From Bacteroidales bacterium (GTDB taxonomy: Bacteria > Bacteroidota > Bacteroidia > Bacteroidales > UBA932), in NCBI GenBank assembly GCA_033811195.1, contig JAPXOZ010000004.1, positions 36,625 through 100,624 of the forward strand: a stretch of 64,000 nucleotides of DNA, read 5' to 3'. The first letter of the stretch is position 1; the number at the start of each line of letters is the position of its first letter. The translations under genes and the position numbers were made by a program. The notes under the pieces were generated by a model. The model was not told the DNA's origin. It did not search any database and saw only the letters and a program-made list of their open reading frames with translations. Positions 1-59,530 of this stretch are shown here, one piece after another.

Positions 1-273
1 GGGACGGTTTCCCTTCTTTGTCGAGGCGAAAAGCGTAAATTGGCTCACCACCAGCACTTCGCCATCGGTATCAACCACGGAGAGATTCATCACTCCATTA
101 TCATCATCAAAAATTCGCAATGCAGCAATCTTGCGACACATCCAATCGATATCTTCCTGTGTGTCCGCCTCTTCAAACCCTACAAGCACCGTCATGCCAT
201 AGCCTATGGTAGCCACCACTTCACCGCCTATGCTGACACTCGAAGAAGACACTCTTTGTATTACGACTCTCAT
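1..273 (-). CDS. dtd: D-aminoacyl-tRNA deacylase (N-terminal 91 codons; 3' end lies beyond the left window edge)
   Basis: Absent from the ORF track because it has no stop inside the window. My reverse-strand translation from the ATG at 273-271 reads MRVVIQRVSSSSVSIGGEVVATIGYGMTVLVGFEEADTQEDIDWMCRKIAALRIFDDDNGVMNLSVVDTDGEVLVVSQFTLFASTKKGNRP. It carries the DTD-family SQFTL and KG-x-RP signatures. The + strand ORF 40..288 is its antisense shadow. Confidence 0.85.
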   Translation of the reverse strand, partial: MRVVIQRVSSSSVSIGGEVVATIGYGMTVLVGFEEADTQEDIDWMCRKIAALRIFDDDNGVMNLSVVDTDGEVLVVSQFTLFASTKKGNRP

Positions 274-307
274 AGTATTTATTTATAATTTGTAACAAAA
301 TGTTTTT

Positions 308-880
308 AGTTCTGAGTTTCGAGTTCCGAGTTTCGAGTTGTGCTCCGCACTCCATACTCCATACTCCACACTCAATACTCCACACTCATACTCCACACTC
401 AATACTCCATACTCCATACTCCATACTCCATACTCAATACTCAATACTCAATACTCCATACTCCATACTCCATACTCCATACTCCATACTCCATACTCCA
501 TACTCCATACTCCATACTCCATACTCAATACTCAATACTCAATACTCAATACTCATACTCCACACTCATACTCCACACTCAATACTCCATACTCCATACT
601 CCATACTCCACACTCAATACTCAATACTCAATACTCAATACTCAATACTATATACTCCACACTCATACTCCAAACTCATACTCCACACTCAATACTCAAT
701 ACTCAATACTCAATACTCCATACTCCACACTCCACACTCCAAACTCACCACTCCATACTACATACTCCACACTCCAAACTCCCCACTCCAAACTCCCCAC
801 TCCATACTACATACTCCCCACTCCCAACTCCCCACTCCAAACTACATACTCCCCACTCCAAACTCCCCACTCAGAACTCC
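308..880. repeat. Degenerate heptanucleotide tandem array: 5 GAGTT-polarity units (308-342) followed by about 78 ACTC-polarity units (343-880)
   Basis: Read directly: AGTTCTG AGTTTCG AGTTCCG AGTTTCG AGTTGTG, then CTCCGCA CTCCATA CTCCATA CTCCACA CTCAATA and so on. There are 10 consecutive CTCCATA units at 454-523. The 53-nt block 378-430 is repeated exactly at 558-610. The + strand has no G from 348 to 873. A 10-bp inverted repeat AGTTCTGAGT (308-317) / ACTCAGAACT (869-878) brackets the array. Confidence 0.95.
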
Positions 881-906
881 TCACTAAACCTCGCAACCCG
901 CACCAC

Positions 907-1683
907 TTATCCGCTTATACGGATCTTTATTCCCGCTTTCTTCAAAGGCTCAGCGGCCCGTTCCATCTCTTTTACTGAGACTTTCTCCAAAGTGGAAAGA
1001 GGAGGTTTCCGGTCAAGGGTGTAGAGCATAACTTCGCGCGGACGTAGTGACAGGACCATTTTCTGCCATCCCACCAGTAAGTCGCTCCTCATCGAATCCA
1101 CCTCCACACCGTTCACAACTCCACGCAAAAACATAGTCTGCAATATGAAATCACCCTCAAACCACTCCAGATTTGAAATCACTTCGCTGATGCTGTAATT
1201 GGGATTTTGGGGACGGTCAATAAGCGTGACATAATCCTTATTCACACCATCAAGCTTGAGAATCGGATTATCTACCTTACGCAGTGCCTCCTTTATTCCG
1301 GGTCTGCCTAGCATAGTTGCGTTTGAAAGCACAGAGATAACAGCTTTCGGAAAAAACTCATCCCTAAGAGCCACCGTATAATCTATGATTTCCGCAAAAT
1401 CGGGGTGTAGGGTAGGCTCGCCGTTGCCGGAAAATGTGATGGAATCTACAGGAATATTGTCGCGTTGGCACTCGTCCAATTTATTTCTTAGGGCCTCGAG
1501 TACCTGCTCCATCGTAGGAATCTTGCTATCTGAGCGTCCCTCTGAGTTCCATCCGCACTCGCAGTAAACACAGTCAAAGGAACAAATCTTGCCCTTGAGG
1601 GGCAGAAGATTTATCCCCAGCGAACTGCCAAGTCTTCTGCTTCTGATCGGACCAAAAACTATACTATCAAAATATATCGCCAT
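907..1683 (-). CDS. Radical SAM protein (specific function not assignable)
   Basis: 258-aa ORF with CSFDCVYC, a CxxxCxxC radical-SAM cluster motif, at about residue 34. Confidence 0.75.
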   Translation of the reverse strand: MAIYFDSIVFGPIRSRRLGSSLGINLLPLKGKICSFDCVYCECGWNSEGRSDSKIPTMEQVLEALRNKLDECQRDNIPVDSITFSGNGEPTLHPDFAEIIDYTVALRDEFFPKAVISVLSNATMLGRPGIKEALRKVDNPILKLDGVNKDYVTLIDRPQNPNYSISEVISNLEWFEGDFILQTMFLRGVVNGVEVDSMRSDLLVGWQKMVLSLRPREVMLYTLDRKPPLSTLEKVSVKEMERAAEPLKKAGIKIRISG

Positions 1684-12554: not shown

Positions 12555-12561
12555 AATATTT

Positions 12562-12596
12562 AGTTCTGAGTTCTAAGTTCTGAGTATTGAGTTCCG
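12562..12596. repeat. Five GAGT-polarity heptads (AGTTCTG AGTTCTA AGTTCTG AGTATTG AGTTCCG)
   Basis: Read directly. Same unit family and the same AGTTCTGAGT decamer as at 308-317 and 56222-56231. Sits between the two terminator hairpins of convergent mutB and rpsU. Confidence 0.85.
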
Positions 12597-55148: not shown

Positions 55149-56213
55149 ATGAAGATTCTTTGTCTCAATCCGGGATCTACTTCTACGAAGATTGCTGTTT
55201 TTGAAGATGGAAAACAAGTCTTTATAACCAATATCAAGCACTCTGCGGAAGCGATTGCAAAGTACAAATCGGTTATAGACCAGTATAAGTTTAGAGAGGA
55301 GATTATTCTCAAGACTCTTGCCGACAACGGCTTTGATAAATCGGAGTTCAGTGCCGTTGTGGGTCGAGGAGGCCTTCTCAAACCTATCCCTTCCGGCACA
55401 TACGAAGTGAATGAGGCACTGTTGGCCGATCTTCGTGGCTCAGTTGGCGGTGAGCATGCTTCCAATCTTGGCGGTATCCTTTCTGATTCGATTGCATCTG
55501 AGATCCCAGGCTGTCGCGCATTCATTTCCGACCCTGTAGTTGTGGACGAGCTTAGTGACCTGGCCAGGGTAGCCGGTCACCCTAAGTTCAAGCGTATCTC
55601 CATTTTTCACACTCTCAACCAGAAAGCTGTTGCCAAACATTATGCGAGCGAAATCGGAGTTTCTTATGACTCTCTCAATCTCATTGTTGCACATCTTGGT
55701 GGAGGCGTTTCAGTAGGAGCACACTATCAAGGAAAGGTAATTGATGTCAATAACGCTCTCAACGGAGAAGGACCTTTTTCACCCGAGCGCTCCGGTACTC
55801 TTCCTGCACAGCAGCTTGCAGATCTCTGCTTTTCCGGTAAATATACACCTGAAGAGGTCAATAAGATGATTTGCGGACAAGGCGGAGTAGTTGCCTATCT
55901 TGGTACGAATGATTTTTATGAGGTAGAACTCAAGATGGTAGATGATCCACATTTCAAGTTTATTGCCGATGCATTCCTTTACAATGTTGCCAAAGAGATA
56001 GGAGCAATGGCAGCTGTCCTTAAAGGCAAAGTGGATGCAATTTTGATTACAGGAGGTGTGGCAAAAGGCAAGGGAATGATGAAGGATTTGACAGAGTATA
56101 TAAAGTTTATCGCTCCCGTCAAAATATATCCCGGAGAGGATGAAATGGCCGCTCTGGCAATGAATGGCTTTGCCGTTCTGGAAGGTCGAGAAGAAGCGAA
56201 GGTTTATAGTTAG
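55149..56213 (+). CDS. buk: Butyrate kinase
   Basis: MKILCLNPGSTSTKIAVFE N-terminus; 354 aa; ASKHA-fold acyl kinase distinct from the AckA upstream. Confidence 0.85.
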   Translation: MKILCLNPGSTSTKIAVFEDGKQVFITNIKHSAEAIAKYKSVIDQYKFREEIILKTLADNGFDKSEFSAVVGRGGLLKPIPSGTYEVNEALLADLRGSVGGEHASNLGGILSDSIASEIPGCRAFISDPVVVDELSDLARVAGHPKFKRISIFHTLNQKAVAKHYASEIGVSYDSLNLIVAHLGGGVSVGAHYQGKVIDVNNALNGEGPFSPERSGTLPAQQLADLCFSGKYTPEEVNKMICGQGGVVAYLGTNDFYEVELKMVDDPHFKFIADAFLYNVAKEIGAMAAVLKGKVDAILITGGVAKGKGMMKDLTEYIKFIAPVKIYPGEDEMAALAMNGFAVLEGREEAKVYS

Positions 56214-56400
56214 GAGTTTAAAGTTCTGAGTTTAGAGTAATTTTGGAGTTTGGAGTTGTGTGGGGTAGGGTTGGTTTCGAGTTCTGAGTGGTGCAAGTTA
56301 CGGGTTACGAGGTGCGGGTTGGTTTCGAGTTACGTGGTGTTTGTCGTGAACTTGAGTTAGGGTTAAGCTCAGAACTGGCTTAAAGTTAAAAGTAGGCCAT
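56214..56400. repeat. Diverged GAGT-polarity heptad arm (left arm of the 56.2-56.8 kb repeat locus)
   Basis: GAGTTTA AAGTTCT GAGTTTA GAGTAAT ... read directly. 16-nt direct repeat GGGTTGGTTTCGAGTT at 56268-56283 and 56316-56331. GAGTTCTGAGTG (56279-56290) is the exact complement of the junction sequence of the downstream 14-mer array. Confidence 0.85.
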
Positions 56401-56417
56401 TTTTGGCTCTCTAAATG

Positions 56418-56458
56418 AAAAAAGGAGGATGATTTCAAAATCGTCCCCCTTCCTTTTT
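56418..56458. terminator. Possible bidirectional terminator hairpin (A-tract / imperfect stem / T-tract)
   Basis: AAAAAGGA (56419-56426) pairs perfectly with TCCTTTTT (56451-56458). The inner GGAGGATGA / TCGTCCCCC pairing is partial. Lies between the two repeat arms. Confidence 0.3.
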
Positions 56459-56487
56459 CTCTCAAAATTCCTCATTGCACCCTACCC

Positions 56488-56753
56488 ACTCCACACTCAG
56501 AACTCCACACTCAGAACTCCACACTCAGAACTCCACACTCAGAACTCCACACTCAGAACTCCACACTCAGAACTCCACACTCAGAACTCCACACTCAGAA
56601 CTCCACACTCAGAACTCCGCACTCAGAACTCCGCACTCAGAACTCCACACTCAGAACTCCACACTCAGAACTCCGCACTCAGAACTCCACACTCAGAACT
56701 CCACACTCAGAACTCCGCACTCAGAACTCCACACTCAGAACTCCACACTCAGA
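56488..56753. repeat. 19 tandem copies of the 14-mer ACTCCACACTCAGA (two heptads per unit)
   Basis: Counted unit by unit: 266 nt = 19 x 14. Fifteen copies are identical. Units 10, 11, 14 and 17 carry ACTCCGCACTCAGA. Confidence 0.97.
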
Positions 56754-56763
56754 ACTATTTTTT

Positions 56764-57780
56764 CTATCTTTTAATCAAGGTAGCTGCAATCTGATGTGCC
56801 ATCATAAGGAAGTCATCGGCAATAGCGGAATCAAATGTGATTACAACATTGAGTTGGATGTCGTCAACAATGATGGCTTTCTTGTAGATATAGCTATCAT
56901 CCTTGTGGCCGATGATGTAAAATTCATTTTCAGAGATGGTCGTATCGTCAAGGATATAGCCTATCTCTTTGAATCCTTCACATTTTTCCTCAAAATGCTC
57001 CTGTATGGTCTGATTGAACATCACAGTGCTGTTATAGCCGCCATAAGCATAGAATCTGGCAAGACCATTGTCCGAAATAAATAACTGTCCATCTCCATTT
57101 TCAGGCTCCCCTTGTCCGGTGAAATTGAAAGGATACCTGATGGTGAACCCGAAACGTTCATTGTAATAACATCTGTCCATAACCAGGTCAAGTTGGTCAA
57201 ATCCACCAAATCCGTCCCATTCAAGATGGCCGACTTTCTGATACTCTTCGCCTCTTACATAGACAGTGATGTCTTTGCCTTTCTGGGGCAATTCTATATA
57301 GTAGCGGGTAGCATCCGGTATGGAGGCTGCAAGTGCAGGAAGCGGTTTTAGAGTCTGCTCTTCAATGCGGTGTTCGTAAAACATCTTTAGTGCTTTCTCA
57401 TTTTCTCTAAGGACAACGCCCACTATCCGCCTGCCATCCGGCACTTTCCAGTAGCACATCTGGAGATTACCCTCCTGCTCACCGGAAATGCCCGCACGCA
57501 TATAGCCATTGCGTTTATCCATTAAAACATAGCCATTAGGGTCACTGGTGATATCTATTTCGTGGTAGACATTATATGCCACTTGCAATACATCGTTTGA
57601 AAATGCTTTGGAAATGACGTTAAAGTAGTACTCAATATCCGGAATGGACTGGTCGGGAAGGGTGATGACTTTCTCCTGCCAGATATTCTCAATCTGGGGG
57701 ACATTCATCCTGCCGGCAAAAACTGATCCTGAAATCAACAGCGCCGACAGTGTGTTGACTAGGATTATCAGTCGTTTCAT
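56764..57780 (-). CDS. Secreted hypothetical protein
   Basis: 338-aa ORF with a clear signal peptide (MKRLIILVNTLSALLISGSVFA). I see no recognisable motif. Confidence 0.55.
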   Translation of the reverse strand: MKRLIILVNTLSALLISGSVFAGRMNVPQIENIWQEKVITLPDQSIPDIEYYFNVISKAFSNDVLQVAYNVYHEIDITSDPNGYVLMDKRNGYMRAGISGEQEGNLQMCYWKVPDGRRIVGVVLRENEKALKMFYEHRIEEQTLKPLPALAASIPDATRYYIELPQKGKDITVYVRGEEYQKVGHLEWDGFGGFDQLDLVMDRCYYNERFGFTIRYPFNFTGQGEPENGDGQLFISDNGLARFYAYGGYNSTVMFNQTIQEHFEEKCEGFKEIGYILDDTTISENEFYIIGHKDDSYIYKKAIIVDDIQLNVVITFDSAIADDFLMMAHQIAATLIKR

Positions 57781-59450: not shown

Positions 59451-59527
59451 CCATAACCCATAACTAGCACCCTAACCCCAAACTAGTAACTTTTAACTCA
59501 ATACTACACACTACATACTCATAACTC
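59451..59527. repeat. Eleven degenerate ACTC-polarity heptads immediately upstream of a start codon
   Basis: CCATAAC CCATAAC TAGCACC CTAACCC CAAACTA GTAACTT TTAACTC AATACTA CACACTA CATACTC ATAACTC, ending 3 nt before the ATG at 59531. The last units are the same type as in array 308-880. Confidence 0.7.
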
Positions 59528-59530
59528 AAA

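Follow-up and report, generated by a model that had tools for sequence, protein, structure and literature searches.

Heptanucleotides are described as the most abundant class of long simple sequence repeats (LSSRs) in prokaryotes, and slippage has been proposed for them (Mrázek et al. 2007, as summarised in PMC4679880). In filamentous cyanobacteria, 7-bp short tandemly repeated repetitive sequences (STRRs) lie at many intergenic sites, for example between the co-transcribed genes hupS and hupL; they can form hairpins and have no known function, roles in transcript stability or translational coupling having been proposed (PMC2670836). Assemblages of TAACTGA and other heptamers occur in Beggiatoaceae, Cyanobacteria and some Bacteroidetes and are lacking in relatives; the arrays of Gramella and Aequorivita reach 43 copies, and Elizabethkingia has mixed assemblages (PMC4679880). 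In H. influenzae, the (ATCTTTC)n repeat of hmw1A is part of the 5' untranslated region (5'-UTR) of the transcript, where it base-pairs with a complementary arm and undergoes processing by RNase III (PMC12721329). Here, we describe a heptanucleotide array in a 64,000-nt stretch of a Bacteroidales genome (GenBank assembly GCA_033811195.1, contig JAPXOZ010000004.1, positions 36,625 to 100,624), which we call the window. The array lies between a radical S-adenosylmethionine (radical-SAM) gene and dtd, and we interpret it, with moderate confidence, as an expanded non-coding simple-sequence repeat that belongs to a lineage-specific family and is probably transcribed as an intercistronic spacer.

An earlier note on this DNA had held that the form of the array matched no known class of repeats. 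This does not stand, as heptanucleotide LSSRs, including STRRs and the TAACTGA assemblages, fit it (PMC4679880, PMC2670836): the 7-nt unit falls within the 5-11 nt class, the length is beyond chance and the location is predominantly non-coding. As far as the source summarised above characterises LSSRs, the array resembles them in its head-to-tail 7-nt units in numbers beyond chance, its mostly non-coding placement, the presence of several loci per genome, a patchy phylogeny and a proposed origin by slippage; measured against that same description, it is unusually long (77 units) and degenerate, and it carries higher-order duplications. With STRRs it shares the dispersal of heptamers over many intergenic loci (six in the 64 kb of the window, with a common AGT core), but it belongs to another phylum and is built from other units, the arrays of the window being restricted to G, A and U on the sense strand; the STRR units CCCCAGT, TTGGTCA and CAACAGT form no tandem pair in the window. 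The TAACTGA assemblages are likewise intergenic direct repeats of heptamers near start or stop codons, whose relatives have shorter, repeat-free spacers (PMC4679880). They precede start codons, however, whereas the main tracts of the window follow stop codons, and TAACTGA itself occurs in the window as nine singletons and no tandem pair. The closest mechanistic analogue is the heptamer repeat of hmw1A and hmw2A, which also lies upstream of a gene and has a complementary arm. Unlike the present locus, hmw is a proven phase-variable adhesin locus with RNase III processing; in the window the gene concerned is a housekeeping gene, the orthologous locus shows no variation within species and the predicted helix is weak. 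The units of the array abut, without the unique spacers of clustered regularly interspaced short palindromic repeats (CRISPR), and we found no bounded element with specific termini or recurring flanks of the kind that defines miniature inverted-repeat transposable elements (MITEs), repetitive extragenic palindromes (REPs) or bacterial interspersed mosaic elements (BIMEs). The heptads are thus a new unit family in a new clade and not a new kind of element; as far as literature searches show, no such repeat has been reported before for this clade of Bacteroidales.

Anatomy of the array

All coordinates are window positions, and the sense strand of the array is the minus strand, on which both flanking genes lie. 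The array is confirmed to be real and far beyond chance: the phased motif ACTCN3ACTCN3ACTC has 91 matches in the window and none in 100 dinucleotide-preserving shuffles. Tandem Repeats Finder (TRF) confirmed a period-7 array at 343-872 with 76.4 copies and 84% matches (periods 14 and 21 too, score 609), and 308-339 was called separately as a short GAGTTTC array. The components of the array are as follows.

308-342, plus strand: five heptads of opposite polarity, AGTTCTG AGTTTCG AGTTCCG AGTTTCG AGTTGTG (TRF, phased scan)
340-350, no strand: junction palindrome GTGC-TCC-GCAC, where the two polarities meet (read from the sequence)
343-880, minus strand: main array of 538 nt, 77 head-to-tail units (72 of 7 nt, five of 6 nt)
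378-453, no strand: internal segmental duplication, copy 1, partner 558-633 (53 nt exact, one mismatch in 76)
454-523, no strand: homogeneous core of 10 x CTCCATA (unit split, motif scan)
558-633, no strand: internal segmental duplication, copy 2, partner 378-453
881-906, minus strand: decayed heptads up to the radical-SAM stop codon at 907 (sequence)

Most of what had been claimed of this anatomy is borne out. The head-to-tail array from 343 to about 880 has 77 units where about 78 had been counted; it does lie between two minus-strand genes (radical-SAM stop at 907, dtd start at 273); the five units at 308-342 do have the opposite polarity, reading NNNNACT on the sense strand; and the homogeneous core does contrast with diverged edges. 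Direct comparison also upheld the identity of 378-430 with 558-610 and its continuation to 453 and 633 with one mismatch, and with it the proposal that segmental duplication acted besides unit slippage. The longest exact repeat inside the array is 56 nt, at an offset of 180.

Splitting 343-880 at CTC or CTA gives CTCCATA (22), CTCAATA (19), CTCCACA (11), CTCCAAA (6), CTCCCCA (6), CTCATA (5) and CTACATA (3), plus singletons. On the sense strand the units read GAGTATG, GAGTATT, GAGTGTG, GAGTTTG, GAGTGGG and similar. G does not occur on the plus strand over 349-868, so that the sense strand has no C in these 520 nt; the antisense strand of the array has 43% C and 0% G, and a sense transcript would consist of G, A and U only. 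The 6-nt CTCATA units do shift the phase, as had been noted, but there are five of them (at 385, 552, 565, 662 and 675) and not three. Since all five share a local context, adjoining CTCCACA or CTCCAAA units, the sequence suggests that the 6-mer probably had a single origin and then spread by block duplication.

A dispersed family of heptad tracts

The array, effectively a minisatellite, is the largest of at least six tracts of an (N)AGTNNN heptad family in the window. The six tracts delimited by a phased scan (AGT at 7-nt spacing) are all intergenic and occupy four of the seven intergenic spacers of at least 150 nt, in a window that is 92% coding. Two of them make up the locus described above, with phased-scan spans of 308-342 (plus strand, 5 units, before the dtd start codon) and 343-885 (minus strand, 77 units, after the radical-SAM stop codon). 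The other four are listed here.

12557-12596 (phased scan 12562-12596), plus strand: about five heptads, AGTTCTG AGTTCTA AGTTCTG AGTATTG AGTTCCG (TRF, phased scan)
56202-56340 (phased scan 56208-56340), plus strand: degenerate AGT-type heptads (TRF, phased scan)
56484-56756, minus strand: 38-39 heptads, 19 x (GAGTTCT GAGTGTG), some GAGTGCG (TRF, period 14, 19.2 copies)
59478-59530, minus strand: about seven heptads, ACT-type on the plus strand (phased scan)

Few as the loci are, the placement of these tracts follows a pattern. AGT-type, G-rich tracts come after stop codons and, at 12562 and 56208-56756, upstream of terminator-like hairpins: the tract at 12557-12596 follows the methylmalonyl-CoA mutase stop codon and sits between two hairpins, the one at 56202-56340 begins at the butyrate kinase (buk) stop codon and is followed by a terminator-like hairpin, and the one at 56484-56756 lies 8 nt past the stop codon of a minus-strand gene (56764-57780) whose 338-aa product has no Pfam or NCBIfam match. 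This last tract is a near-perfect repeat of the 14-mer ACTCCACACTCAGA (97% matches) with a scattered A/G variant (CCACA or CCGCA). ACT-type, G-poor tracts lie shortly before start codons, those of dtd and of a cytidylate-kinase-like gene; the tract at 59478-59530 abuts the ATG of the latter gene (59531) and is nearly free of G (one in 53 nt). Before the same gene, one related species has three NNAACCC heptads (L282) and another locus almost no spacer (L288).

The dispersal of the family also bears on how the ends of the array are to be read. The exact reverse complementarity of 308-317 to 869-878 that the earlier note had described is present, but it is not a specific bracketing repeat, because the sequence concerned, AGTTCTGAGT, recurs 25 times in the window, where 0.14 copies are expected, and is spread over four intergenic spacers; it is the commonest dimer of the dispersed heptad family and not a specific terminal repeat. 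A MITE-like mobile element with terminal inverted repeats, or a repetitive protein encoded by the plus-strand open reading frames (ORFs) of 195-228 aa that run through the array, is therefore scarcely credible, even though a 10-nt inverted repeat does occur at both ends and all three plus-strand frames are open. The element reading is ruled out by the 25 copies of AGTTCTGAGT and by loci that differ in length and flanks; nor did we notice a target-site duplication or shared flank in reading the loci. The protein reading fails as well. The three plus frames are open because that strand lacks G, the minus frames having 8-12 stops; the ORFs across the array run antisense to the operon without matching any Pfam family, and orthologous arrays differ by lengths that are not multiples of three. 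Mechanically called plus-strand ORFs of 121-228 aa at 300-1024 and 56429-56794, in which 7-aa motifs such as HTPYSIL recur, arise as artefacts of the scarcity of G; Pfam returns weak, spurious coiled-coil matches for the ORF at 56429-56794. ORFs of this kind could be mis-annotated as genes.

As regards strand-specific structure, no G-quadruplex motif occurs in the window with loops of up to 12 nt. The array of the closest relative (L202, 10877-10900) ends in four TAGTGGG units that form a canonical G-quadruplex motif, the only one there. With none in the window and one in the L202 array, G-quadruplex formation is ruled out as a general property of the family.

Conservation, turnover and variation in related species

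Among genomes, the radical-SAM protein is best matched (84-90% identity) by metagenome-assembled genomes (MAGs) from sludge digesters and biogas reactors. Heptads occupy the radical-SAM-dtd gap in five of six related species, in numbers from about 3 to 20 units and with differing unit sequence, and are missing from the sixth. The spacers from the radical-SAM stop codon to dtd are as follows.

Window: 633 nt, 77 units and five inverted units
L001 = L202 = L318: ~156 nt, about 20 units, TAGTATG and TAGTGGG
L002: 122 nt, about 3 units
L003 = L203 = L308: 123-126 nt (two measures), about 6 degenerate units
L204: 98 nt, 3-4 decayed units
L004 = L205: 264 nt, 3 + 10 units, a heptads-plus-hairpin module being duplicated
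L298 group: 81 nt, no heptads

Where present, the orthologous heptads start at or within the radical-SAM stop codon and are nearly all free of C, and the length differences between arrays are not multiples of three. None of the relatives has the inverted arm (308-342). Two related species have about 6-7 and about 9 units of the ACTACAC or ACTACAT type at the buk locus, compared with 38 in the window. The unit counts in relatives carry an ascertainment bias, since a short-read assembly can cross an array only if it is short. No run of at least three phased AGT heptads was found in 75 loci of more distant relatives (at most 63% identity, ~0.8 Mb), and among the loci scanned, runs of at least five phased units occur nowhere but in the window and its closest relatives. 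By these comparisons the family is specific to a clade of uncultured Bacteroidales from anaerobic digesters, of about genus rank, in which the heptads keep their position but change rapidly in unit sequence and number. Because heptads follow the stop codon of the radical-SAM gene in five of the related species, a short tract existed there before these species split.

Other repeats accompany the heptads in the relatives. In most of them a conserved 14-bp stem element, TTCAAATAACACGG...CCGTGTTATTTGAA around a T-rich loop, lies before dtd (L002 6815-6860; L003 6805-6870; L205 10795-10860 and 10950-11015; and the L298 and L308 spacers); it is absent from the window and L001, is duplicated in L205 together with the heptads, and may contain the dtd promoter. 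More distant Bacteroidales (~51% radical-SAM identity) have blocks of other heptamers, AATTCTA, TTCGACT, TTCCGCC, CTTTCGC and ATTTACG (L278 9879-9979, 10875-10941 and 14594-15027; L269 11323-11485; L272 8194-8266), which have the period of 7 in common with the window family but not the unit sequence. Some of them lie directly upstream of a promoter-like TAnnTTTG, the -7 promoter motif of Bacteroidetes, and the L272 block is an inverted pair of tracts. In L278 (9675-9720 and 14905-14955), a recurring short element, CCCCTCC..GGAGGGG..AGGGGGAGGTC then AATTCGTAATTCGTAATTG, looks REP-like and has heptads attached. When viral contigs were scanned for five GAGTNNN units, heptamer arrays of every unit type were among the matches listed; heptamer arrays are widespread, and such matches say little about the window's heptad family.

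Variation within species was found at one tract. Two loci of one species (L282 and L285), otherwise 100% identical over 241 nt, differ by 7 nt within the heptads GAGCAAT TAACAAT GAGCAAT, which form a tract in the 3'-terminal part of a MatE gene (L282 7825-7845; L285 7825-7838), and this one-unit insertion or deletion (indel) shifts the frame and alters the C-terminus of the product (462 vs 453 aa). One-unit slippage therefore occurs. Over population time-scales, however, tracts that are short and degenerate remain stable: within each of three related species the radical-SAM-dtd spacer has a single sequence (10 samples, 8 samples and, in the species with 20 units, at least 2 independent assemblies), and the buk-side spacer is identical across 6 and 9 samples of two related species. 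This stability argues against a high-frequency contingency role, in which frequent gain and loss of units would alter the spacer length and hence the expression of dtd. Perfect runs prone to slippage (10 x CTCCATA, and 19 copies of the 14-mer at 56488-56756), the polymorphism just described and the precedent of the hmw 7-bp repeats (PMC12721329) would all be in keeping with such a phase-variable locus. We nevertheless find it very unlikely, as most of the array consists of degenerate units, dtd and its neighbours are housekeeping and not surface or restriction-modification genes, and the short arrays of three related species and the buk-side arrays do not vary; the contingency interpretation raised in the earlier note is thus unsupported.

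The same assemblies allow us to judge whether the array, at least in its copy number and internal order, could be an assembly artefact. Tandem arrays that exceed the read length are hard to assemble, and in the relatives short-read assemblies cross short arrays only, with contigs L297, L311 and L312 ending inside or next to tracts and L004 having a gap of Ns. We still hold an artefact to be highly improbable, given the complex, non-uniform order of units with its higher-order structure, a source contig (reported 111 kb) that spans two long arrays, and heptads that recur at this position in five species, each assembled independently.

On our preferred reading, an expanded simple-sequence repeat, the tract grew to 77 units in the window lineage by two routes. 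Unit-by-unit replication slippage is suggested by the runs of identical units and by the 7-nt indel at another heptad tract. The 76-nt duplicate inside the array and the spread of the 6-nt units show that unequal recombination or segmental duplication was the second route.

Transcription context and possible roles at the RNA level

The genes and leader that flank the array are the following.

1-273, minus strand: dtd, 5' part (D-aminoacyl-tRNA deacylase; Pfam Tyr_Deacylase 3e-36, NCBIfam TIGR00256 6e-32)
274-307, minus strand: A/T-rich 34-nt leader from the inverted arm to the dtd ATG (ACATTTTG 22 nt upstream of the ATG)
907-1683, minus strand: radical-SAM gene, 258 aa (Pfam PF04055 7e-12), whose stop codon abuts the array

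Along the sense strand dtd is downstream of the array, in a co-oriented run of DUF4296, amidohydrolase, radical-SAM and dtd genes. The gaps before the radical-SAM gene, the third of the run, are tight (9 nt and -4 nt), and the radical-SAM-dtd gap, filled by the array, measures 633 nt. A motif scan found no canonical TAnnTTTG before dtd, while hutU in the same window has one, and a scan for sigma-70-type promoters and terminators returned nothing relevant in the radical-SAM-dtd spacer. Since no recognisable promoter precedes dtd, a radical-SAM-dtd co-transcript that crosses the array is plausible from the sequence, and the array would then most likely be transcribed as an untranslated spacer of this co-transcript. 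The sense strand consists of G, A and U only, so that it would present neither a C-rich Rho loading site nor strong G-C structure, and this may be why the array is tolerated; a sequence-specific function it probably does not have. Searches of the whole window gave no Rfam match at the gathering threshold and no tRNA. Looking up identical proteins returned no record for the radical-SAM or buk protein of the window, and the amidohydrolase only on a 1.4-kb contig.

Structure predictions indicate what such a transcript might do. For the sense RNA of 260-460 (201 nt), RNA folding gives a minimum free energy (MFE) of -45 kcal/mol, a centroid of -28.1 and a z-score of -2.96, and in the centroid fold the 35-nt ACUC arm pairs with adjacent GAGU units in a ladder of 4-5 bp with single mismatches; when the whole 651-nt segment is folded, the MFE structure contains the distal 10-bp pairing and has a z-score of -7.3, although tandem repeats inflate such scores. 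According to these models, pairing of the inverted units with the adjacent array could give a weak hairpin, ladder-like in form, close upstream of dtd.

It is in this context that a cis-acting RNA element has to be considered, in which the transcribed heptads serve as a hairpin, a protein platform or a Rho-proof spacer. In the first variant, the GAGU array and the ACUC arm would form a long imperfect hairpin in the dtd leader that is processed as in the hmw1A 5'-UTR; in the second, the heptads would act as a multivalent platform that is bound by a protein with affinity for single-stranded RNA, of the RRM type like RbpB or a HutP-like ring protein reading NAG-N4; in the third, the spacer would be Rho-proof and its antisense strand a strong Rho loading site. 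The predicted hairpin of 308-342 with adjacent units and the fold of the whole segment speak for an element of this kind, as do the contrast between 0% C on the sense strand and 43% C with 0% G on the antisense strand, the placement of AGT-type tracts between stop codons and terminator-like hairpins and of ACT-type tracts just before start codons, the stop-codon position conserved in five related species, and the precedent of hmw1A, whose transcribed (ATCTTTC)n forms a hairpin with a complementary arm that is cut by RNase III (PMC12721329). Neither unit sequence nor unit number is conserved, however, and the related species without heptads keeps the same operon; the inverted arm occurs in the window only, a helix of 4-5 bp segments with mismatches would be a poor RNase III substrate, and the z-scores carry the inflation mentioned above. 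No binding protein has been identified, HutP- and TRAP-like genes having been sought nowhere beyond the window. On balance, we regard an RNA element as unlikely.

With respect to a protein partner, the Bacteroides protein RbpB bound three copies of GUAGGAUA, a sequence of G, U and A only, and not a C/U-rich motif (bioRxiv 10.1101/2021.04.27.441718). By analogy, this result may serve as a lead for such a partner and is no evidence on this array. The L001 array would read as (UAGUAUG)n in RNA, that is UAG-N4, which fits the pattern of HutP sites. We set HutP- or TRAP-like binding aside as a candidate, the resemblance extending to NAG and a 7-nt period; the tract near hutU lies outside the hutU leader, in the 3' region of the upstream gene and before a terminator-like hairpin.

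Several observations weigh against our preferred interpretation of the array as an expanded repeat that is tolerated in a transcript. That C is missing from 520 nt of the sense strand, and from the orthologous arrays as well, goes beyond what simple drift predicts, and none of the ~12 substitutions that created units was to C, for which the rough odds are ~1%. Polarity is consistent, with AGT-type tracts after stop codons at five loci and ACT-type tracts before start codons at two. In addition, five related species share the placement at the stop codon, and short arrays are invariant within species, so that slippage is not fast. The lack of C and the consistent polarity each hint at constraint and, together with the conserved position at the stop codon, keep a function at the RNA level possible. 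A more far-reaching proposal, which we hold to be quite unlikely, is a lineage-wide RNA code in which G/A/U-only (N)AGUNNN heptads after stop codons and complementary NNNACU heptads before start codons recruit a single-strand RNA-binding protein or pair with one another. To our knowledge, the phylum Bacteroidetes lacks Hfq, CsrA and Shine-Dalgarno-led initiation, and such a code, if true, would govern processing between cistrons, the translation of the cistron that follows or the protection of the transcript from Rho.

Arrays of this type break short-read assemblies and create spurious ORFs, and are therefore relevant to the annotation of Bacteroidales MAGs. Heptanucleotide repeats of bacteria have been known since the work on cyanobacterial STRRs, and their function, if any, is still unexplained. 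In this regard, the lineage of the window offers a compact test case, with defined positions, a conserved location combined with rapid sequence turnover, and an extreme strand composition. Should the whole genome prove to keep this polarity and to avoid C in these tracts, selection acting on RNA would be indicated rather than slippage alone, and an RNA code, if true, would provide a testable function for these long-unexplained repeats.

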